NCBI GenBank assembly: GCA_017525605.1
Contig: JAFXSM010000033.1
Location: 10,747-74,746, forward strand
Direction: 5' to 3'
Length of the DNA: 64,000 bases
DNA from: Treponema sp.
GTDB taxonomy: Bacteria; Spirochaetota; Spirochaetia; Treponematales; Treponemataceae
In this document: positions 6,544 to 46,574 of the stretch, piece by piece
Position numbering within the stretch: the first letter of the stretch is position 1
How the letters are laid out: every line of letters starts with the position of its first letter
Notes under the pieces: model-generated
Database searches by the model: none
Told to the model about the DNA's origin: nothing
The model's input: the letters and a program-made list of their open reading frames with translations, nothing else
Program-made: the position numbers and the translations under genes

Positions 6544-7698
6544 TTATTTCCAAATGGAAATGTCGAACGATTTTTCAACCTGGTTTTCAACATTGTCGTC
6601 GAGAAGCGAGTAGAAATCGAGGCCGGTTCTTTTTTCAGCTTCATCGATTGAGACGGCGAAATCCCAGAACTGTTTTCCAGAGCATCCGTCGTTCGGAAGG
6701 ATAAATCCGATTGCGGCAACTGATTTCGCGTCGTCCGGGGTTTTCTTGTCGGCATCGTTTTCATAAATCGGCGCGAGGATTACTTTGTAGTAATACTGCG
6801 GAATCGCGACTTTGTTCTGCTTTCCGATTGATGCGTATTTTGACGCAGGCTTGTCGAGAATCGGGCCTGAGACAACGTAGACCTGACCGAATGTTTTCGT
6901 CCACACGCGCACCTGGGCTTCGAGCTGCTGCCAGATTCCGCGGTTGAATGCGCCTGCCTGCGGGCTCATGTTGCTCATGTAGAACGTCTCGCTCATCGCT
7001 TTTTCGTCGAATGACATGTCTGCCGCCGGCGTGAGATGTCCTCTGTCGTAGCCCGAGCCTTTGTAGTCGTCGAGCGTTGCCGAGCCTGTCGTGATTTTCG
7101 GGTCTTCCCTGAAATCGTTCGTCCTTCCTGAATTCTTTTTGAGGTTTGCGGTTGTCAGTTTGTATGCCGACCATTCCGCCTGCTCATAGCTTTCCCTGTA
7201 GCAGACAGCGTAATTGTTGAATTTCCTTATCTGATGGTCTTTCGCGTGGTTTGCTCCGGCGCAGACTGGTGTTTCAAGCCCGTCCTGAAGCGCAATCATT
7301 CCTGTCGTGTAGACTTTTGCGGATTTTGATTTTGAAGTCGAAACTTCTTCTTCAACAACTTCGTTTTCCTCAACTTCCGCCTGAGCTTTCTCGGTTTTTT
7401 TAGCTTTTTCCGTTTTGCTCTTTTCGGACTTCTTCTTTGCTGCGTCAGTTGCCTTCTGCTTTGCTTTCGAAGTTTCCTTCTTTATCGTTTCCGCTTTCTT
7501 TCCTGCTTCCTTCGAAATCGTCTCGATTGTCGATTCGACTTCCTTTGCCACAGTTTCCGGCACTGCCGAGATGTCTCCTGTTGACTTGTACTTCCTGTAG
7601 CCGATTACGGCGACGATGATAATCAATATGAAAATCAGCGTTTTGGAAGAGCCTTTCTTTTTGTTGTTGTTCTGGTTCGTATTCTTTCGTTTCGCCAT
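6544..7698 (-). CDS. membrane-anchored DNA/RNA non-specific endonuclease (NucA/EndoG beta-beta-alpha-Me family)
   Basis: 384 aa. It has an N-terminal TM segment, a Lys/Glu-rich linker, and catalytic DRGHLTPAAD plus SNMSPQ motifs. Confidence 0.85.
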   Translation of the reverse strand: MAKRKNTNQNNNKKKGSSKTLIFILIIIVAVIGYRKYKSTGDISAVPETVAKEVESTIETISKEAGKKAETIKKETSKAKQKATDAAKKKSEKSKTEKAKKTEKAQAEVEENEVVEEEVSTSKSKSAKVYTTGMIALQDGLETPVCAGANHAKDHQIRKFNNYAVCYRESYEQAEWSAYKLTTANLKKNSGRTNDFREDPKITTGSATLDDYKGSGYDRGHLTPAADMSFDEKAMSETFYMSNMSPQAGAFNRGIWQQLEAQVRVWTKTFGQVYVVSGPILDKPASKYASIGKQNKVAIPQYYYKVILAPIYENDADKKTPDDAKSVAAIGFILPNDGCSGKQFWDFAVSIDEAEKRTGLDFYSLLDDNVENQVEKSFDISIWK

Positions 7699-16370: not shown

Positions 16371-16400
16371 CTCTTTATAAGTCTTTATAACTCTTTATAG
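16371..16400. repeat. three phased 10-bp direct repeats CTTTATA(A/G)
   Basis: CTCTTTATAA GTCTTTATAA CTCTTTATAG occupy exactly consecutive 10-bp registers, about 40 nt upstream of the sanA start. Confidence 0.8.
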
Positions 16401-16501
16401 TTTTTTACAATTTTCAAAAACAATGCAGAGCGGATGCGAATTCCTCAAAAAACATGGATTTTGTAGTTCAATGCGGGTAAGATGTTCTTGGAGGTACGAA
16501 T

Positions 16502-16753
16502 ATGTCTTATGATTCTGTTGCAAGCGCAATTCCTTCTATGACCTATGACGAGCAGATAAATTTGCTTTCCATATTGATAGATGCCGTGAAAAGAGGCATA
16601 CACAGCATCCCTGAAAAAAAATCGGAAGCAAAAGACCACAGGGACTCCTATCCTGATGGCTATTTCGACTTGTTTGGCTCTTGTGATGACGATTCTTTCG
16701 TAGAGCCGGAAGAACTTTCATGGGAATTAGAAGAAAAGAAGGAGTTTTTCTGA
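16502..16753 (+). CDS. putative antitoxin of the adjacent PIN toxin (no recognisable DNA-binding fold)
   Basis: 83 aa with an acidic C-terminus. GGAGG lies 7 nt upstream. Its stop overlaps the vapC ATG (TGATG). Confidence 0.6.
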   Translation: MSYDSVASAIPSMTYDEQINLLSILIDAVKRGIHSIPEKKSEAKDHRDSYPDGYFDLFGSCDDDSFVEPEELSWELEEKKEFF

Positions 16754-17154
16754 TGTATTATTTGGATTCAAATGTAGTTATTGATGCTACAGCAAGGAAA
16801 ACTGCGAATTTGCTGTTGCCATATTTTGAGAAGTTGGAGCCGTCAGAAATCTGCATTCCATCAATCGTTCTTGCTGAATTGGTGTTTGGTGCCCGACATT
16901 CCAGAGATTATGAAAAGAATCTGAAAATTGTTTCGGAATTTATAGCTCCATATCGAATAGTTCCTTTTTCAGAAAAAGAAGCTGTTGCCTACGGAAAAAT
17001 CCGGGAGCAGCTTACAAAAGATGGAAAGTTGATTGGACCGAACGATATGCTTATTGCGGCAACTGCCCTTGCAAACAATGCGGTTCTTGTAACGCACAAT
17101 ACAGATGAATTTTCCAGGGTCGCTGGGTTGGTGATTGAAGACTGGAGAAAATAA
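16753..17154 (+). CDS. vapC: PIN-domain ribonuclease toxin (VapC family)
   Basis: ORF 16720..17154; internal ATG at 16753 (MYYLDSNVVID...). Conserved acidic positions are in DSN, AEL, NDMLIAA and THN. Confidence 0.85.
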   Translation: MYYLDSNVVIDATARKTANLLLPYFEKLEPSEICIPSIVLAELVFGARHSRDYEKNLKIVSEFIAPYRIVPFSEKEAVAYGKIREQLTKDGKLIGPNDMLIAATALANNAVLVTHNTDEFSRVAGLVIEDWRK

Positions 17155-17166
17155 AAAGGGGGCGTA

Positions 17167-17871
17167 ATGTTCGCCAAAGAGCATGATTCGGATTTTGAAA
17201 AAGTGATTTCCCTCCTTGAGGGCGACGAGGACATGCTTTATTTTCTGGGCTACTGCAGAAAGCGAATCGACGGGCTTAGGAAAGAGGCACTTTCCGATTT
17301 GGACAAGTTCATCGATTCATTCTCCAATCGCGATTTCGAGCGTAGGAAGCGTTTTATAAAAATCATTCTGGATTCCGCTGACTCCTCGTGCGATTCTCCG
17401 AGGACGATGAGCCACAATCTGAACGAGCGGATAATAAAGCCGACCCTTGACGAATGGGCAAAGACCGAAAGAGCGAATTTCCTTCCGTTTTATTGGAAGG
17501 CGAAATATTTTCATGACCACGAAGCCCTTGAATACGCAGTAAAGACCTTTCCGAATGAGCAGAAGCCGCTTGTGCTTTCGATTGAGCGGGACATATGGTA
17601 TCTGTACTATGCGACCCACCACCTGCCGGAAGGCTACATCGGATACGTTGACGAGGACTTGCCCATCGTGGAAGAAGTCGAAAAAAGAATCGTCCGTGTG
17701 GAAGATGAAAAGACAAGAGATGAATTGAACGCCGATTTTCAGTTTTACAAGGAACTTGTTCTGAACTATCGCGAATGGAGAATGTCCGGCGAGCCGAACT
17801 TAGAGGAGTGGGGCAGGAAAACCGGAAAAAATGTAGATAGCGGGGTGCGGGCGTATTGTTATCGGAGATGA
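17167..17871 (+). CDS. hypothetical protein
   Basis: 234-aa ORF 13 nt after vapC. No recognisable domain. Confidence 0.6.
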   Translation: MFAKEHDSDFEKVISLLEGDEDMLYFLGYCRKRIDGLRKEALSDLDKFIDSFSNRDFERRKRFIKIILDSADSSCDSPRTMSHNLNERIIKPTLDEWAKTERANFLPFYWKAKYFHDHEALEYAVKTFPNEQKPLVLSIERDIWYLYYATHHLPEGYIGYVDEDLPIVEEVEKRIVRVEDEKTRDELNADFQFYKELVLNYREWRMSGEPNLEEWGRKTGKNVDSGVRAYCYRR

Positions 17872-18023
17872 TGGAGCGGGAAAAACTACTCCGTCTGAAA
17901 AATCCGAAATTAGAACGGAAACTGCTTTGTAAGTCTCTTGCCGGAAAAACTTGCGCCGTGTAAAGATTTTAAAGATTACGAACAGGATTTCACGAAAATA
18001 TTTTTTGGAATGAAATACCTTTT

Positions 18024-18194
18024 ACAAAAAACAGGCCGCACACGACGTGCGACCACACTTTGCAGAATCTTGTTTTCACAAAGAGGGACGTACAGGATGT
18101 ACGTCCACACTTTAGCAGAACCGCCATGCAGTTCTGCGTAGTTTTGATACGGCACGGATGCCGTATCAAAACTACTTATTCTGTTGGGCGTTTC
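18024..18194 (-). repeat. Direct repeat A: duplicated argG 3-prime end plus four-hairpin 3-prime UTR
   Basis: It aligns with 19955-20123 at roughly nine positions in ten by eye. It includes a decayed copy of the last argG codons and stop (18176-18194, minus sense) and a copy of the argG terminator hairpin. Confidence 0.9.
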
Positions 18195-18289
18195 GTCTTT
18201 CATTTTTTTCCTCGTCCCATTCAAAACGTCCGTCCGCACTTATTACAGTTTTACATGTACAAAAAATGATGTCTATTTTTCCACCCTTT

Positions 18290-18342
18290 CGGGTATAAAA
18301 ACAGCAATTTCACTTTAAATTATACCCGTTCGGTTGTAAAAT
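18290..18342 (+). promoter_or_regulatory. candidate hipB operator/promoter
   Basis: Inverted repeat CGGGTATAA (18290-18298) / TTATACCCG (18320-18328). TAAAAT at 18337-18342 is only 6 nt before the hipB ATG, and there is no Shine-Dalgarno. Confidence 0.4.
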
Positions 18343-18348
18343 AGATGC

Positions 18349-18567
18349 ATGAACCAGATTGCCCAATTCGTCAAGACCGAGCGGAAAAAAGCAGGTCTTA
18401 CACAGGAGGATTTCTCTATTCGCAGTGGGCTAGGCTTGCGCTTTGTGCGTGAGCTCGAGCAGGGCAAAGAAACTTGCCGCATGGACAAGGTGAATCACGC
18501 ACTGTCAATGTTCGGTTGCACACTCGGAGTCGTAAGAATGCCACGCGAAGAGGAGATGGAGAAATGA
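18349..18567 (+). CDS. hipB: XRE/Cro-type HTH protein, HipB component of a tripartite HipBST-like module
   Basis: 72 aa. HTH LTQEDFSIRSGLGLRFVRELEQGK. Its stop overlaps the next start (ATGA). Confidence 0.85.
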   Translation: MNQIAQFVKTERKKAGLTQEDFSIRSGLGLRFVRELEQGKETCRMDKVNHALSMFGCTLGVVRMPREEEMEK

Positions 18568-18893
18568 ATGCGGAGTATCGGAAAGGATATGTGTTTGTCC
18601 AAAATGTTTTCTCAGGAATAATCCGAGAAACTGATTCAGGGTATGAATTTTCATACGACGAGGAATATCTGAAATCAAAAAATCCACTGGCTGTCAGTCT
18701 GACTTTACCATTGCAGAAAGAACTGTTTGAAAGCAAGACTCTCTTTCCTTTTTTTGACGGACTAATTCCCGAAGGTTGGCTTTTAAATGTCGTTTCCAAA
18801 AACTGGAAAATTGACCGCCGTGATAGGTTCGGTCTTTTGCTCGCGGTTTGCAAAGATTCTGTCGGAGATGTTTCCGTAAGGGTATGCGTATGA
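18564..18893 (+). CDS. hipS: HipA N-terminal subdomain protein (HipS-like)
   Basis: Internal ATG at 18564 in ORF 18474..18893. The 109-aa product matches the HipA N-terminal coupling domain pattern (YEFSYDEEYL...LSLTLPL...FPFFDGLIPEGW...LLLAVCKDSVGDVSV). Confidence 0.8.
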   Translation: MNAEYRKGYVFVQNVFSGIIRETDSGYEFSYDEEYLKSKNPLAVSLTLPLQKELFESKTLFPFFDGLIPEGWLLNVVSKNWKIDRRDRFGLLLAVCKDSVGDVSVRVCV

Positions 18894-19864
18894 GCGGGGA
18901 GAAAAAAATCTGTCTTTATTGCCGAAAGGAAATCAGTTCGGAAAATCCGATTGAACTGAAAAATTTGTGGCATCCAAAATGCATTCAGAAATTTTTTGGA
19001 ACGGTAGATTTCCCTGAAATTTCAGTCACAAAAGAGCAGCTTGAAAATCTCGCATTGGAAACTGTATCAAAAGGATACACTGTTGCCGGCGTTCAGAAAA
19101 AACTCTCGCTGCATCTTTCTCAGGAAAAAAAATCTCGACTTACGATTGTCGGATATCCTGCAGGATTCATACTAAAACCGCAGACTGAGGAATTTGCTCA
19201 TCTGCCTGAAATGGAAAATCTTGTGATGAACATTGCGGCATCTGCCGGAATAAAGACCGTTCCGAATGCATTAGTCAGGCTTTATGACGGCTTTGCCTAC
19301 ATAACCAGAAGAATTGACAGGAAGGCTCTGAAAAGTGGCACAAAATTATTTGCTATGGAAGATTTCTGCCAGCTTTCGGAACGTCCTACGGAAGATAAAT
19401 ACAAATCATCGTATGAGAGATGTGCAAAAATAATAAGAACGTATTCTTCGAAACCAGGATTAGACATTGCCGAACTGTTTTACAGGCTTGTTTTCTGCTT
19501 TGCGACAGGAAATTCAGATATGCATCTGAAGAATTTTTCGCTGATTGAATCAGAGCCGAAATCAAGATGCTTCGAACTTTCCGCAGCCTACGACTTGCTT
19601 CCGGTGAATCTTGCAATGCCTGAAGATACGGAAGATTTCGCGCTTACAATGAACGGAAAAAAATCAAAAATAAAAAGGCATGATTTTCTGACGTTCGCTG
19701 ACACATGTAAAATTTCAGAATCAGCAGCAGAAAAGATAATTCATAAAATTATTTCGCTTGAAGGTATGTTCAAAAAACTTGTCACAGAATCATTTCTGTC
19801 AGAATCTGAAAAATCTGATTTCATAAAACTGATTGCAAGCAGAATGGAGAGGCTGAGGGAATAG
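18890..19864 (+). CDS. hipT: HipA-family serine/threonine kinase toxin lacking its own N-subdomain (HipT-like), with N-terminal CxxC...HxxC ribbon
   Basis: ATG at 18890 overlaps the hipS stop (ATGA). Gly-rich loop VAGVQKKLSL and catalytic GNSDMHLKNFSL. N-terminus CLYCRKE...WHPKCIQKFFG. Confidence 0.85.
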   Translation: MSGEKKICLYCRKEISSENPIELKNLWHPKCIQKFFGTVDFPEISVTKEQLENLALETVSKGYTVAGVQKKLSLHLSQEKKSRLTIVGYPAGFILKPQTEEFAHLPEMENLVMNIAASAGIKTVPNALVRLYDGFAYITRRIDRKALKSGTKLFAMEDFCQLSERPTEDKYKSSYERCAKIIRTYSSKPGLDIAELFYRLVFCFATGNSDMHLKNFSLIESEPKSRCFELSAAYDLLPVNLAMPEDTEDFALTMNGKKSKIKRHDFLTFADTCKISESAAEKIIHKIISLEGMFKKLVTESFLSESEKSDFIKLIASRMERLRE

Positions 19865-19954
19865 AAAGCTATTCCATGTGAAGCCCGAATGAGCCAACAA
19901 CACTCATCAGCACCATTCCTCTCTTTCATTGCACATAAAAAAACTTTTCTACCC

Positions 19955-19984
19955 ACAAAAACAGGCCGCACACGACGTGCGACC
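19955..19984 (-). terminator. intrinsic terminator of argG
   Basis: Minus sense GGTCGCAC-GTCGT-GTGCGGCC (8 bp, one G-U) followed by TGTTTTTGT. Confidence 0.65.
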
Positions 19985-20123
19985 ACACTTTGCAGAATCT
20001 TGTTTCCACTAAGCAGGACGTACAGGATGTACGTCCACACTTTAGCAGAACAGCGAAAGCTGTTCTGCGTAGTTTTATACGGCACGGATGCCATATAAAA
20101 CTACTTACTCTGTCGGGCGTTTC
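19955..20123 (-). repeat. Direct repeat B: native argG 3-prime end plus four-hairpin 3-prime UTR
   Basis: Partner of 18024-18194. It contains the real argG stop (20105-20107) and hairpins at 20069-20104, 20045-20068, 20016-20036 and 19964-19984. Confidence 0.9.
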
Positions 20124-21367
20124 TTCAAGTTCTTGCTTTCGGCAATCGCCCTGCCTTCGCCGACTTTCTGCTCCATCATGGCGCGGACTTTGAGCGGGAG
20201 ACCGAAGAGCGTGATGAAGCCCTGTGCGTCCTTGTGGTTGTAAAGTTCGCCAGTCGTGAACGAAGCGATGTCCTCGTTGTAGAGGCTGTACTTCGAGTCG
20301 CTTCCTGCAGCGCGAATCTGTCCCTTCACGAGTTTGACTTTCGTCCAGCCGGTCACGGTCTCCTGTGTGGAATCGACGAACGCCATCAGAGCGTCGTAGA
20401 GCGGAGTGAATACTTTTCCGTCGTAGATGAGCTCTGCCAAGCGCAATGAAACCTGCTGCTTGTAGTGGTATGTGTCGCGGTCAAGGCAGATGTGGTCCAT
20501 CATGCGGTGCGCGAAATAGAGGATTGCTCCGCCCGGTGTCTCGTAGACTCCGCGGCTCTTCATTCCGACGCAGCGGTTCTCGCAGATATCGACAAGACCG
20601 ACTCCGTTTCTTCCGCCGATTTTGTTGAGTTCTGTCATAAGCTCAAGGCCGTCCATCTTCTTTCCGTTCAAAGAGACCGGGATTCCCTTTTCCCATTCGA
20701 TTGTGACGTATTCGCCTTCGCCTGCGCTTTCAGGAACTGTCGTGTTCTTGAGCATGTGCGGGTAGTTCGGTTCATTTGATGTCTTCTCAAGTTCGAGACC
20801 TTCGTGGCTGATGTGCCAGATGTTCTCGTCGCGTGAGTAAGACTGGTCTTTCTTCATCGGAACTTCAAGACCTCTGTCTTCAAGGAATTTGATTTCTGCT
20901 TCGCGGCTGTCCATGTTCCACTTGTCGTCTCTCCATGCAGCGATTACGCGGAGGTCAGGGGCAAATGCCTTTATCGCAAGCTCGAAACGAACCTGGTCGT
21001 TGCCTTTTCCTGTTGCGCCGTGGCAGATTGCAGTTGCGCCTTCCTGCCTTGCGTATTCAACAAGGATTTTTCCGATGAGAGGGCGGGCAGTTGAAGTTCC
21101 GAGAAGATATTCGTCCTCGTAAACAGCGTTTGCCTTGAGTGCCGGCCAGATGTATTCTTCGATGTATTCTTTTCGTGCGTCAACAACGTAGCAAGCCGAT
21201 GCGCCTGTCTTGAGCGCGCGGCCTTTTATTGCTTCCCAGTCATCGCCCTGACCTACGTCGATGCAGACTGCGATTACGTCGTAATCGTAGTTTTCTTTGA
21301 GCCAAGGAATGATGACAGTTGTGTCCAATCCACCCGAATAAGCGAGAATAACTTTCTCTTTTGACAT
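20105..21367 (-). CDS. argG: argininosuccinate synthase
   Basis: 420 aa. AYSGGLDTT P-loop-like motif and full ArgG pattern. Confidence 0.97.
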   Translation of the reverse strand: MSKEKVILAYSGGLDTTVIIPWLKENYDYDVIAVCIDVGQGDDWEAIKGRALKTGASACYVVDARKEYIEEYIWPALKANAVYEDEYLLGTSTARPLIGKILVEYARQEGATAICHGATGKGNDQVRFELAIKAFAPDLRVIAAWRDDKWNMDSREAEIKFLEDRGLEVPMKKDQSYSRDENIWHISHEGLELEKTSNEPNYPHMLKNTTVPESAGEGEYVTIEWEKGIPVSLNGKKMDGLELMTELNKIGGRNGVGLVDICENRCVGMKSRGVYETPGGAILYFAHRMMDHICLDRDTYHYKQQVSLRLAELIYDGKVFTPLYDALMAFVDSTQETVTGWTKVKLVKGQIRAAGSDSKYSLYNEDIASFTTGELYNHKDAQGFITLFGLPLKVRAMMEQKVGEGRAIAESKNLKKRPTE

Positions 21368-45173: not shown

Positions 45174-46574
45174 ATGAATATCACATCAAAAAAGTCTAGA
45201 CTCTCAGGTTCTGTTGTTGTTCCTGGTTCAAAATCTCACACAATCCGCGCTCTGATTCTTGCGACGATTGCGGAAGGCACTTCGCACATCAAGAATCCGC
45301 TTCCGAGTGCGGATTGCCTTTCTACGGCTGCGGCAGTTCCGCTTATCGGCTCAATGGTAGACTTGAACTTGTCAACCGAGGGCGAGCCTGGGACTTCGTG
45401 GACGGTTTGCGGTGCCGGAAGTCAAGTTCATCTTCCTGACGACGTAATCAATGTCGGAAATTCGGGGTCGCTTTTGTATTTTCTCGCTCCGATTGCCGCG
45501 ACTTTTGATGGCGACACAGTTTTTACGGGCGACGATTCAATCAGAAAACGCCCGGTTCAGCATGTAATCGATTCGATTAATCAGCTTTCGGATAAAAAAT
45601 CATTCGTGACTGTTCCCGGAAAAAACGGCTGTCCGATGGTAATCCGAGGTCCTATCCATAGCGGAACTGTGAAAACCTAGGGCGAAATTTCAAGCCAATA
45701 TGTCACAGGATTGATGCTCGCTGGAATTCTCCTTGACGGCGGAATCAAACTTGAGCTTTCGAATCCGAAAGAGACTCCGTATCTTACGATGACACAGAAG
45801 TGGTTCGAGAAAGTCGGCGTGGAATGTTCGATTTCCGATGATTTCAAGAAAATCGAAGTAAAGCAGAACAAAAATCTCAAGGCGTTCACGACGACGATTC
45901 CGAGCGATTGGGAAGGCGTTGTGTTTCCGCTTGTCGCAGGTCTTTTAAGCGAGTCCGGCTCGAAAATCACAATCGAAAACATCGACGGAAGCGGAACTCA
46001 GGGCGATGACGCTATCGTCAAGATTCTCCAGTCTGTCGGCGGAAGAATCGTGTGGGACAAGGAAAAATTCACAATCACCGTTGAGCCTTCTCGCCTTACG
46101 ACAGAAAATCTCCCGGACAAGACCCTCCGCGTCAAAATGTCTCCGTTCCCTGATGCGATTTGCGCTCTTGCTGTTGCGGCTTGTTTTACCGAGGGCACGA
46201 CAATCCTTGAGGATGCCGCAGTTTGCAGGCGGAAGGAAACTGACAGAATCAAAGTCCTTAAAATCGAGCTTTCAAAACTCGGCGCGGAAGTTGAGGAAAA
46301 AGAAGATGCCCTGATTATTCACGGCCACGCGCCTTTCCTTGCCAACGGAGGAAAGAATCCCGAATTCGTTCTGCACGGCGGGCTTTGCGAAAGCTACATG
46401 GATCACAGGATGGCGATGTCGCTTGCGTGCCTTGGAATCGGTCTTCCGAAAGGGGAGAGCGTCATCGTGAAAGATGCCGAATGCTGTTCCGTGAGCTTCC
46501 CGAAATTCTTTGAAGTGATGCGCGGAATCGGATGCAGCTTTGAGGAACTTGACGTGATTTCAATGAATCTTTAA
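45174..46574 (+). pseudogene. aroA: 3-phosphoshikimate 1-carboxyvinyltransferase (EPSP synthase) interrupted by one in-frame TAG at 45678-45680
   Basis: ORFs 45174..45680 and 45711..46574 are in the same frame. Reading through gives ...GTVKT-stop-GEISSQYVTGLMLAG, and the S-S-Q-Y segment is the conserved AroA motif. Confidence 0.85.

Follow-up and report, generated by a model that had tools for sequence, protein, structure and literature searches.

In the window, by which we mean the whole 64-kb stretch of Treponema DNA analyzed here, a hipBST operon lies between two copies of the argG 3′ end. We consider it likely that hipBST was inserted here once, with duplication of its target, and was later spread by homologous recombination through the duplicated target. 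The cassette would stand between two argG ends because its insertion duplicated the target. The sequences compared with this locus are all metagenome contigs or MAGs, in which strain chimeras are possible precisely at repeats.

The inserted cassette (18198..19868, plus strand; 1671 nt, GC 0.406) comprises a promoter/operator region, hipB, hipS and hipT followed by 4 nt (AAAG). Its left end (18198..18348, plus strand) contains promoter-like sites and two inverted motifs (18277-18298 and 18320-18341), which by their sequence are putative HipB operators; a 27-nt piece (18317-18343) is conserved in 74%-related hipBST loci as well. The three genes, all on the plus strand, overlap by their start and stop codons: hipB (18349..18567) encodes a 72-aa HTH protein (Pfam HTH_31), hipS (18564..18893) a protein of 109 aa (Pfam Couple_hipA, 1.7e-23) and hipT (18890..19864) a predicted kinase of 324 aa (Pfam HipA_C, 6.8e-43). 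In the PDB, HipT was most similar to Legionella HipT (7vkb/8ezr at 1.5e-39), followed by 7ab3-5 at about 1e-13, and HipS to Legionella HipS (7vkb_B at 8.6e-19). The kinase catalytic and Gly-rich loops of HipT are conserved, with VAGVQKKLS, GNSDMHLKNFSL and AYDLL aligning with Legionella HipT. Based on gene order, domains and loops, the cassette is a predicted HipBST tripartite toxin–antitoxin (TA) operon. A system of this type would be toxic by phosphorylating a tRNA synthetase, with HipS as the neutralizing partner. Known HipBST systems (E. coli O127, 7AB3-5; Legionella, 7VKB/8EZR; PMC10653801) share the same hipB-hipS-hipT order, domains and kinase loops. Unlike them, the Treponema HipT has an extra N-terminal Cys-rich segment (CxxC...HPKC) outside the PDB alignments.

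The first-pass annotation, made from the letters of this DNA, had judged by eye that the cassette is more AT-rich than argG, and the computed GC contents (0.406 vs 0.522) bear this out. The codon usage check that it had proposed gave a GC3 of 0.37 for hipS and hipT, compared with 0.63-0.65 for argG and the M48 gene. At the right cassette junction, a perfect 7-bp hairpin (19858..19875, GGAATAG-AAAG-CTATTCC) spans the hipT stop codon and the first bases of the adjoining spacer, named e (19869..19956). Terminal inverted repeats were sought and rejected: only CTTTC in the window, or CCT in a second Treponema locus (L107), matched between the cassette ends, and none was conserved between cassettes.

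The direct repeats reported to enclose hipBST about 1.93 kb apart are present, 2-3 nt to the right of where they had first been placed. Copy A (R_A, 18027..18197, minus strand, 171 nt) is a duplicated argG 3′ end with a hairpin-rich 3′ UTR; its argG part corresponds to KRPTE* plus part of the seventh codon from the end. Copy B (R_B, 19957..20126, minus strand, 170 nt) contains the functional argG end (the last seven codons and the stop) and the native 3′ UTR, with four consecutive hairpins, the last of which is a terminator-like hairpin with a U-run. The starts of the copies are 1930 nt apart, and between the copies there are only the 151-nt promoter/operator region, hipB, hipS, hipT and a 92-nt spacer. 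The argG gene itself (20105..21367, minus strand) encodes an intact argininosuccinate synthase of 420 aa, 98% identical to that of T. saccharophilum DSM 2985. The occupied arrangement recurs in independent assemblies from ENA, NCBI, JGI and Logan and is therefore not an assembly artefact.

The two copies are 91% identical over 172 aligned columns, with differences scattered across the whole repeat. Copy B is the real argG end and reads KNLKKRPTE*; copy A reads K*KTKRPTE*, its argG homology ending at the seventh codon from the end. The two nucleotide differences on which copy A had been called decayed do exist, but both are synonymous and one is a standing variant of real argG ends. Simple decay does not describe this copy: all hairpins are kept with compensatory changes, and the half nearer the cassette is an allele carried along with it from one lineage to another.

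The repeat folds into a row of hairpins with strong structure (z = -9) and has an internal duplication of a unit of about 53 nt. Such an array, with compensatory changes, could suggest a dispersed REP/MITE-like element or an integron attC-like site, with hipBST lying between the copies by chance or as an integron-type cassette. We give this reading practically no credit. A 36-nt core of the repeat occurs exactly twice in the 64 kb, against none expected from shuffles; a metagenome-wide pattern scan returned four matches, all at argG, and BLAST of the repeat over about 95 Treponema loci found argG ends only. Thus, the many unrelated loci that had been named as evidence against an insertion scar did not appear in the window, the scan or these loci, and a dispersed repeat was rejected on the same grounds. 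Moreover, the repeat contains in-frame argG codons, and empty sites hold one copy. An integron was rejected since intI is absent and the hairpin architecture is wrong: the repeat forms four individual hairpins where an attC would have a single long imperfect palindrome with R''/R' boxes, and inspection revealed no GTTRRRY/RYYYAAC pair. No Rfam covariance model matched anywhere in the window at the gathering threshold, which leaves the repeat without a known RNA family.

Related contigs with one repeat and no hipBST (L092, L093, L095 and T. saccharophilum L012) agree with the proposed insertion scar with a duplicated target. It had been stated that relatives all carrying both repeats without hipBST would speak against a scar; single-repeat empty sites were found instead. 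This result also bears on the possibility that the duplication came first, i.e., that an argG-distal tandem duplication arose by slippage or unequal exchange and that hipBST later entered or replaced its inner part by recombination. Such a pathway has been discussed explicitly for similar patterns (PMC3457768), and microhomology-mediated duplications and deletions do occur at this locus (L006, L096 and L011). Nevertheless, no contig carries insert-free tandem repeats. The pathway needs two occurrences at unrelated loci, with the insert placed exactly between the copies and ending 4 nt past the hipT stop, and the foreign DNA is devoid of the two-sided homology that the substitution step requires. 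We find a prior duplication quite improbable.

In the 64-kb window, no integrase, transposase or resolvase domain was detected in any ORF of at least 120 aa, and no tRNA was found, in line with the first-pass annotation. Searches of plasmids, phages and viral contigs for a vehicle gave nothing closer than 54-56% protein identity. A second case was found in another Treponema at an unrelated locus (L107), where a perfect 35-nt duplication brackets a 75%-related hipBST in an insert of 1703 nt and where the empty sites L110 and L111 hold one copy of the 35-nt sequence. Since this duplication is unrelated to the argG repeat, the duplicated sequence is the target and not an att site borne by the element. 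Accordingly, of the earlier idea that an element had integrated into the argG 3′ end bringing a replacement end, the insertion with a duplicated target stands, but the replacement end carried in through an integrase does not: its att logic is at odds with the unrelated duplication around a related cassette. Resemblance of the L107 cassette left end to the argG end was also considered and rejected, as nothing beyond 6-nt matches was seen, which we attribute to chance.

Site-specific integration through a tyrosine or serine recombinase supplied in trans, with the repeats as attL and attR of a decayed or cis-mobilizable element that brought a replacement argG end, would account for the choice of a gene 3′ end and for direct repeats around low-GC cargo. 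The palindrome-rich repeat could bind a dimeric protein, and the right cassette end is the same in the two events. Apart from the lack of a recombinase or tRNA within 64 kb, such integration has to face two independent insertions that duplicate unrelated sequences (35 nt vs 171-254 nt), left cassette ends that differ, A/B differences over the whole repeat with no identical core, and recombination end-points that vary by lineage. It appears very improbable to us. Integrase islands in gene 3′ ends and CIMEs likewise have direct repeats with the target 3′ end, an intact gene and low-GC cargo. These elements are identified by an integrase gene inside them or by att sites that an integrase recognizes, and by an identical core at both ends where strands are exchanged; in the Treponema case there is no integrase in or near the element and no conserved core, the 'att' sequences of two related cassettes are unrelated and the end-points are variable.

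The cassette of L107 and that of the window share the right end (stop codon plus AARG) and differ at the left end. That two events share the right end hints that the cassette has a defined end there, which plain recombination or repair does not explain. No flanking repeats of at least 16-20 nt bracketing the cassette were found in L099, L106, L108, L109 and L118, while L119, where the left flank is missing, is readable at the hipT end alone. Flanking duplications occur in only two of about eight independent hipBST contexts examined and are therefore not a general property of the hipBST family.

The spread of the cassette at the argG site is seen from its sequence conservation. Among Treponema lineages, the cassette is 99.2-100% identical, with 0-4 differences per 1667 nt relative to L003, L004, L009 and L011 and 13 relative to L096, whereas the flanking genes are only 72-96% identical. 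The identity was about 94% for spacer e, 88-94% for argG, 80% for the M48 gene and 72% for the RNase T gene. A near-identical cassette in diverged flanks shows that the spread was recent. All occupied contigs have the same junction between copy A and the cassette, which indicates one origin, and the argG-site insertion appears to go back to a single event.

Copy A is a hybrid, in which the cassette-proximal half travels with the cassette and the distal half matches the resident lineage. The distal part is 93-95% identical to the copy B of its own lineage in all four lineages and 37-70% identical between lineages. In the proximal part, A copies share 94-100% identity in five of six cases, and their identity to their own copy B is 74-89%. 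Copy A of L009 departs from this pattern, and so does L011. The hybrid structure points to homologous recombination inside the repeat, and we infer that homologous recombination was the vehicle of the cassette's spread.

A Campbell-type cycle alone might also produce hybrids. Here, repeat-by-repeat recombination would excise a circle of one repeat and the cassette, which would re-integrate in another strain through one crossover with the lone repeat there, regenerating the duplication each time and requiring no special mechanism after a first accidental event. As such a cycle would have it, copy A is a recipient/donor hybrid, the empty site L092 has a hybrid repeat, which is expected of A × B exchange, and the length of A/B homology follows the left flank of the recipient (171 vs 254 nt). 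On the other hand, a single crossover predicts a donor-type left part of copy B, which is actually lineage-specific, and spacer e has diverged more than the cassette although it would be part of the circle. The first event and the 35-nt case are left unexplained, and no circle junction was observed. We hold this cycle to be rather unlikely as the whole explanation. As the source of the hybrid repeat, ends-in double crossover, Campbell-type single crossover and post-insertion gene conversion each fit part of the data, and none fits all.

The duplication also varies in length, being 171 nt in the window and 254 nt in L004, where spacer e is duplicated along with R. Spacer e separates the end of the cassette from copy B. 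It varies more than the cassette does, with 1-4 changes per 88 nt in each lineage, and part of it persists upstream of the cassette in L096. Based on L004, L096 and the analogy with L107, spacer e was probably part of the original target; an empty site bearing spacer e was not found among the comparison contigs. To the left of copy A lies segment c (17925..18026), the remnant of an HTH gene 3′ end and its downstream region. This HTH gene is complete in L003 and L092, and segment c directly abuts the single repeat in the empty site L092. In most occupied variants, segment c and not e is found left of copy A, so an extra replacement step is needed.

Secondary rearrangements were seen at microhomologies as well. 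L006 has a 10-nt microhomology junction and a 385-bp flanking duplication around the cassette; in the window, the microhomology CCGAATGAGC is located at 19885..19894, with a second copy at 17551-17560. Copy A has been lost and the duplication removed in L096 and L097, and L011 has an internal deletion. On its left, the variable region is anchored by a gene of unknown function (17167..17871, plus strand, 234 aa), and between it and copy A different genes are found in L003, L004, L007 and L096.

Taken together, an insertion with target duplication followed by homologous recombination can be proposed to have proceeded as follows. The two repeats are copies of one native sequence, the last seven argG codons and a row of 3′ UTR hairpins, the last of them a terminator. 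A 1.67-kb hipBST operon with no mobility gene was probably inserted once in an ancestor of a rumen Treponema lineage near T. saccharophilum. The target would have been duplicated on both sides, as R alone (171 nt) or, in the most complete variant, as R together with spacer e (254 nt), and therefore argG would have retained both its end and its terminator. From then on, the duplicated target probably served as portable homology, and general homologous recombination, crossing over within the repeat and spacer, probably carried the cassette from one diverged lineage to another. Segments would be swapped between the repeats by gene conversion, and microhomology-mediated joins may have given rise to further variants. 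Our best guess for the first duplication is host recombination or repair, possibly with one homologous and one illegitimate end, or with fill-in at a staggered break or stalled fork; a dedicated recombinase is not favored.

Judged by its sequence features, the Treponema hipBST insertion fits a known class, insertion with long target duplication (Nobusato, Uchiyama, Ohashi and Kobayashi 2000, Gene 259:99; Furuta, Abe and Kobayashi 2010, NAR 38:2428, PMC2853133), which was described mainly for restriction-modification (RM) units and whose mechanism is unexplained. The repeats reported in PMC2853133 are 46-423 bp long and may overlap a gene 3′ end (e.g., 15 bp of HI0105), and its authors suggested a mechanism tied to the DNA double-strand breakage that RM systems have in common. 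The criteria of that paper can be compared with our case item by item. It asks for a complete gene unit inside the insert (here hipB, hipS and hipT with the promoter/operator), an insert below 20 kb (1671 nt; 1703 nt in L107), a target duplication above 30 bp (171 nt in the window, 254 nt in L004 and 35 nt in L107), flanks with one repeat and no insert in a comparison genome (L092, L093, L095 and L012; L110 and L111 for L107) and no involvement of a mobility gene (none within the 64-kb window). It also asks that the repeat be absent from the rest of the genome; here, the window, about 95 Treponema loci and the metagenome scan were covered, and in these the repeat was found only at argG ends. 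The RM cargo is replaced here by a HipBST kinase TA. The pattern has been recognized for 'other DNAs' too (PMC3457768), so RM cargo does not strictly define the class.

As in this class, the Treponema insert is a small unit without a mobility gene between long direct repeats whose length varies (35, 171 and 254 bp), with an overlap of a gene 3′ end (24 bp of argG), has a single copy of the repeat in the comparison genome, and combines deviant GC with 'addictive' cargo. The differences lie in the kinase TA cargo and in the host, a spirochaete; in contrast to RM systems, HipT is not expected to break DNA double strands. Beyond PMC2853133, the Treponema data add population evidence for recombinational spread, namely the near-identical cassette in diverged flanks and the hybrid repeat.

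Two further systems are similar in part. The L006 rearrangement has exactly the anatomy expected of homology-facilitated illegitimate recombination, reportedly described by de Vries and Wackernagel (2002) and by Prudhomme et al. (2002), with homology on one side, the 10-nt microhomology on the other and a 385-bp duplication. This likeness holds only for the secondary rearrangement in L006, and the primary junctions (repeat/cassette and cassette/e) show at most 3-5 nt of ambiguous microhomology. The minimal mobile elements of Neisseria, said to have been introduced by Saunders and Snyder (2002), are intervals between conserved genes with strain-varying cassettes that lack mobility genes and are exchanged through recombination of the homologous flanks. 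Likewise, different genes are found from the 234-aa gene to argG in L003, L004, L007, L095, L096 and the window. A duplicated target is no part of the definition of minimal mobile elements, whereas here most of the homology used is inside the duplication itself. The term and its recombination context appear in passages of PMC3787668 and PMC1797815.

A more far-reaching proposal, which we put forward as speculative and regard as doubtful, is that the hipBST cassettes of this clade are self-contained selfish units entering by recombinase-free insertion with long target duplication, through one mechanism, independent of cargo cleavage, for RM and TA units. The duplicated target would then be a handle for excision, amplification and recA-dependent transfer to relatives that have the target, and the fixed right end (stop plus AARG and, in the window, the perfect 7-bp hairpin) would be a processing or joining site.

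As a route by which genes move, insertion with long target duplication has lacked an explanation since 2000. The occurrence of its signature twice around a kinase toxin–antitoxin operon in a spirochaete, with matched empty sites, argues that the mechanism is host-supplied or common to addictive modules and does not depend on a cargo nuclease. Afterwards, the long repeats would act as portable homology, by which a recombinase-free cassette may move between diverged genomes and can also be lost. In this way, the population data may account for the continued mobility of defence and TA islets that have no mobility genes.

The hipBST cassette was bracketed by two direct repeats, copy A (18027-18197) and copy B (19957-20126), which start 1930 nt apart and share 91% identity with three small indels. 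The first-pass annotation had reported such repeats, and its coordinates were only 2-3 nt off. The 36-nt core of the repeat occurred exactly twice in 64 kb and not once in shuffled sequence. Between the copies we found a 151-nt promoter/operator region (segment d, between copy A and hipB), hipB (72 aa, HTH), hipS (109 aa, Couple_hipA), hipT (324 aa, HipA_C) and a 92-nt spacer made of 4 nt (AAAG) and the 88-nt segment e, and nothing more. The same arrangement was present in independent assemblies (ENA, NCBI GCA_017535005.1 and other sources).

Based on gene order and domains, the best solved-structure matches (Legionella HipT/HipS and E. coli O127 HipBST) and the conserved kinase loops of HipT, the cargo is predicted to be a bona fide HipBST-type module. 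HipT also carries an N-terminal Cys-rich segment, CLYC...WHPKC (residues 1-52, 18890-19045), which is conserved in relatives, lies outside the alignments to the solved HipT structures and may be a zinc-ribbon.

On the argG-sense strand, the repeat includes the stop-codon region followed by four consecutive strong hairpins (z-scores -9.0 and -9.4), the fourth of which is GC-rich, precedes a U-run and is terminator-like. The repeat is therefore the argG 3' end together with the entire argG 3' UTR. The true end of argG (minus strand) lies in copy B and reads KNLKKRPTE-stop, while copy A reads K-stop-KTKRPTE-stop, with the in-frame stop just upstream of the homology limit; homology between the copies ceases inside the 7th codon counted from the argG stop. 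The two substitutions previously seen in the argG codons of copy A were present, and both are synonymous. The description of copy A as decayed was not supported, as its hairpin structure is kept as well as that of copy B. In a set of 15 distinct repeat copies taken from related contigs, two hairpins were universal; these were 98% paired, and 7 pairs had changed on both sides, versus at most one in slid-partner controls. Either selection on RNA or DNA structure or palindrome-correcting repair would produce such compensated hairpins. In alignment A4, the loop of hairpin H2 (window 20052-20061 and equivalents) was inverted between alleles (AGC-TTTC-GCT versus AGC-GAAA-GCT), as if the tip of the hairpin had been flipped. 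Two versions of hairpin H1, both fully compensated, were present, and the stop codon switched between TAA and TAG with a 4-nt indel at the hairpin base. No Rfam family matched the repeat.

The cassette had a GC content of 0.406 versus 0.522 for argG, in agreement with the AT-richness earlier judged by eye, and GC3 was 0.37 in hipS/hipT versus 0.63-0.65 in argG and M48. No integrase, transposase, resolvase or HUH domain was detected in ORFs of at least 120 aa across the 64-kb window, nor was any tRNA or tmRNA, as the first reading had stated for integrase, transposase and tRNA. Known plasmids and phages gave no match to the cassette, and two viral contigs carried relatives with only 54-56% identity. 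A dispersed repeat, occurring at many unrelated loci, would have spoken against an insertion scar. This explanation was rejected: the window holds two copies, a pattern scan of a metagenome collection gave four matches, all at the argG end and none elsewhere, and a BLAST search against ~95 Treponema loci returned matches only beside argG. In T. saccharophilum DSM 2985, whose ArgG is 98% identical, the repeat is present in one copy (76-77% identity), and it was undetectable in the more distant Treponema species compared. Elsewhere in the window, a DNA/RNA non-specific endonuclease (6544-7698, PF01223, 4e-56) was annotated; this family, which includes the pneumococcal uptake nuclease EndA, may be relevant to DNA uptake by this Treponema.

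The proposed comparison with related genomes yielded four sites where argG is followed by a single repeat without hipBST, namely, contigs L092, L093 and L095 and the T. saccharophilum type strain. In L092, the segment forming the left flank of copy A in the window (17925-18026) abuts one repeat and then argG. The junction between copy A and d (GGGCGTTTC followed by GTCTTTCATTTTTTTCC) was identical in all contigs with hipBST at this locus, which indicates that there was probably one original insertion.

The occupied contigs differed in structure. In L003, L004 and L007, other genes (0.9-3.9 kb) lie between a gene for a 234-aa protein and copy A. In L004, the A/B homology extends over 254 nt, including e, and starts 4 nt past the hipT stop. 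L096 and L097 have no copy A; here d is preceded by the first ~55 nt of an e copy situated upstream, with the junction at a short T/C-rich motif, so that these contigs look like a microhomology deletion of an L004-like form. An internal deletion in copy A was found in L011. L006 has a different duplication around the module, 385 bp derived from the 3' end of the 234-aa gene, and its novel junction falls within a microhomology of 10 nt: CCGAATGAGC occurs both in e (19885-19894) and within the 234-aa gene (17551-17560). The two 385-bp copies stem from different lineages; they are 95.6% identical, one being window-like and the other L095-like. Based on this and on the microhomology junction, L006 looks like the product of recombination with one homologous and one illegitimate end.

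Several other features of this interval were observed. The 234-aa gene (17167-17871) has 95-96% nucleotide identity across lineages and always delimits the variable interval on the left; the encoded protein has no Pfam family. Different genes (Fe ABC transporter, Lcl_C) lie to its left in L096. A second TA-like pair (16502-17154), encoding an 83-aa protein and a PIN-domain toxin, is located in the same low-GC islet as hipBST; its PIN gene is missing in L003 and replaced by a different PIN_3 gene in L004. The left edge of the islet is marked by a short tandem array (16371-16410) in the sanA upstream region, with 3-4 copies of a 10-nt CTCTTTATAA-like unit. On the argG strand, spacer e contains an ORF of 12-15 codons (19869-19925, minus strand; MSVVGSFGLHME, then a stop), preceded by AGAGAGGA. 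The stop of this ORF is the left end of e and pairs with the hipT stop in a hairpin. L004 retains this ORF in its upstream e copy, where a single Gly has changed to Trp. In T. saccharophilum DSM 2985 (locus L012, 264-4151), the ychF region comes next after argG and its one repeat; in the window, this region lies at 46.6 kb (~46645), in the opposite orientation relative to the argG end (~20016). This is compatible with a ~26-kb inversion, one end-point of which would be where the repeat ends distally, next to the TA islet. The point where synteny resumes (~46.6 kb) is adjoined by an EPSP synthase gene (aroA) split into two ORFs (45174-45680 and 45711-46574; profile positions 3-132 and 172-417), a split that may reflect a frameshift, a pseudogene or faulty assembly.

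Over 1667 nt, d and hipBST showed 0-4 differences from L003, L004, L009 and L011 and 13 from L096. The surroundings were less similar: ~94% identity for e, 88-94% for the argG halves and, in L003, 80% for M48 and 72% for RNase T. On the right, identity starts to fall 0-32 nt past the hipT stop; on the left, it does so at copy A or inside it. Such near-invariance, synonymous sites included, cannot be due to selection, and the near-identical cassette in diverged flanks shows recent movement between lineages.

We divided the repeat at the start of H2 into cassette-distal and cassette-proximal parts. Four lineages, representing three different structural variants, have both copies on one contig; in each of them, the distal part of copy A was 93-95% identical to copy B of the same lineage, versus 37-70% between lineages. 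The proximal part of copy A was instead common to lineages (window versus L004 100%, L006 98%, L007 95% and L003 94%, with L009 as the exception) and only 74-89% identical to copy B of its own lineage; the proximal part of copy B tracks the argG lineage. Copy A thus appears to be a hybrid of recipient and donor sequence whose crossover point falls within the repeat, with the reservation that the comparison sequences are metagenome contigs, in which possible strain chimeras at repeats could affect this pattern but not the contrast between cassette and flank divergence. The hybrid could stem from ends-in integration, from a Campbell-type crossover or from gene conversion at a later time; each fits part of the pattern, but some details misfit in every case. 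In general terms, the cassette would spread by homologous recombination, with the duplicated target as portable homology.

The identity of HipT relatives falls from 99% to at most 80%, and those with 70-79% sit in unrelated contexts. In L107, a contig from another Treponema (HipT 75%), the cassette has an ABC substrate-binding gene on one side and an amine-oxidase-like gene on the other and is bracketed by a perfect 35-nt direct repeat. The second copy begins 4 nt past the hipT stop (TAA AAGG, then the repeat), as e does in the window (TAG AAAG, then e). In L110 and L111, a gap of 107 nt separates the same pair of genes; the 35-nt sequence is present once and hipBST is absent, and these empty sites verify the repeat as a target duplication. 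The duplicated sequences are unrelated, being a promoter region in L107 and a gene end with a terminator at argG, and the left ends of the two cassettes differ by ~38 nt; both facts argue strongly against an att-type site-specific mechanism. No bracketing repeat was found in the L099 group, L106, L108, L109 or L118, and in L119 only the hipT end is readable, the left flank not being on the contig. Modules related at 74% (L098-L105, e.g., L099 4847-9042) occupy defence-island-like contexts in the order NUDIX, hipBST, a co-oriented 296-aa gene 8 nt past hipT, and Fic; the NUDIX-hipBST-296aa block is constant, and its variable neighbours include PLD-helicase, McrBC or methylase genes. In L106, a putative tRNA gene (100-180), a classical integration hotspot, lies on the opposite strand ~180 nt from a 79%-related hipBST, and this short contig has no flanking repeat.

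A real long target duplication thus surrounds a recombinase-free hipBST cassette. The insertion scar proposed at first stands, but its integrase-style reading, like the decayed copy, is unsupported. The pattern agrees with the class known as insertion with long target duplication, here with hipBST as cargo instead of RM. Nobusato et al. 2000 introduced this class on the basis of two Helicobacter pylori genomes, and a survey by Furuta, Abe and Kobayashi 2010 (PMC2853133) followed. In that survey, RM units were inserted with long variable duplications (46-423 bp) of genome-unique sequence, at times overlapping a gene 3' end, with no other mobile element involved and mostly in naturally competent species. 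Cases were defined by a complete system inside the insert, an insert <20 kb, a duplication >30 bp and a single copy in a comparison genome; the argG locus shows all of these. The survey authors left the mechanism unexplained, suggested that it involves DNA double-strand breakage, a property common to RM systems, and proposed a cycle of insertion, amplification via the repeats and release. As in Neisseria minimal mobile elements, the interval holds different genes in different strains. We consider the class assignment and recombination through the repeats probable, while any particular molecular mechanism for the first insertion is doubtful. The literature searched contained no report of a classical TA module inserted in this way, and TA reviews with the phrase "insertion with long target duplication" had it only in cited titles in their reference lists. 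The locus is a further case of a known, unexplained class, with a cargo and a host phylum new to it in the literature examined, and it offers two matched pairs of occupied and empty sites and a nuclease-free cargo for a question open for 25 years.
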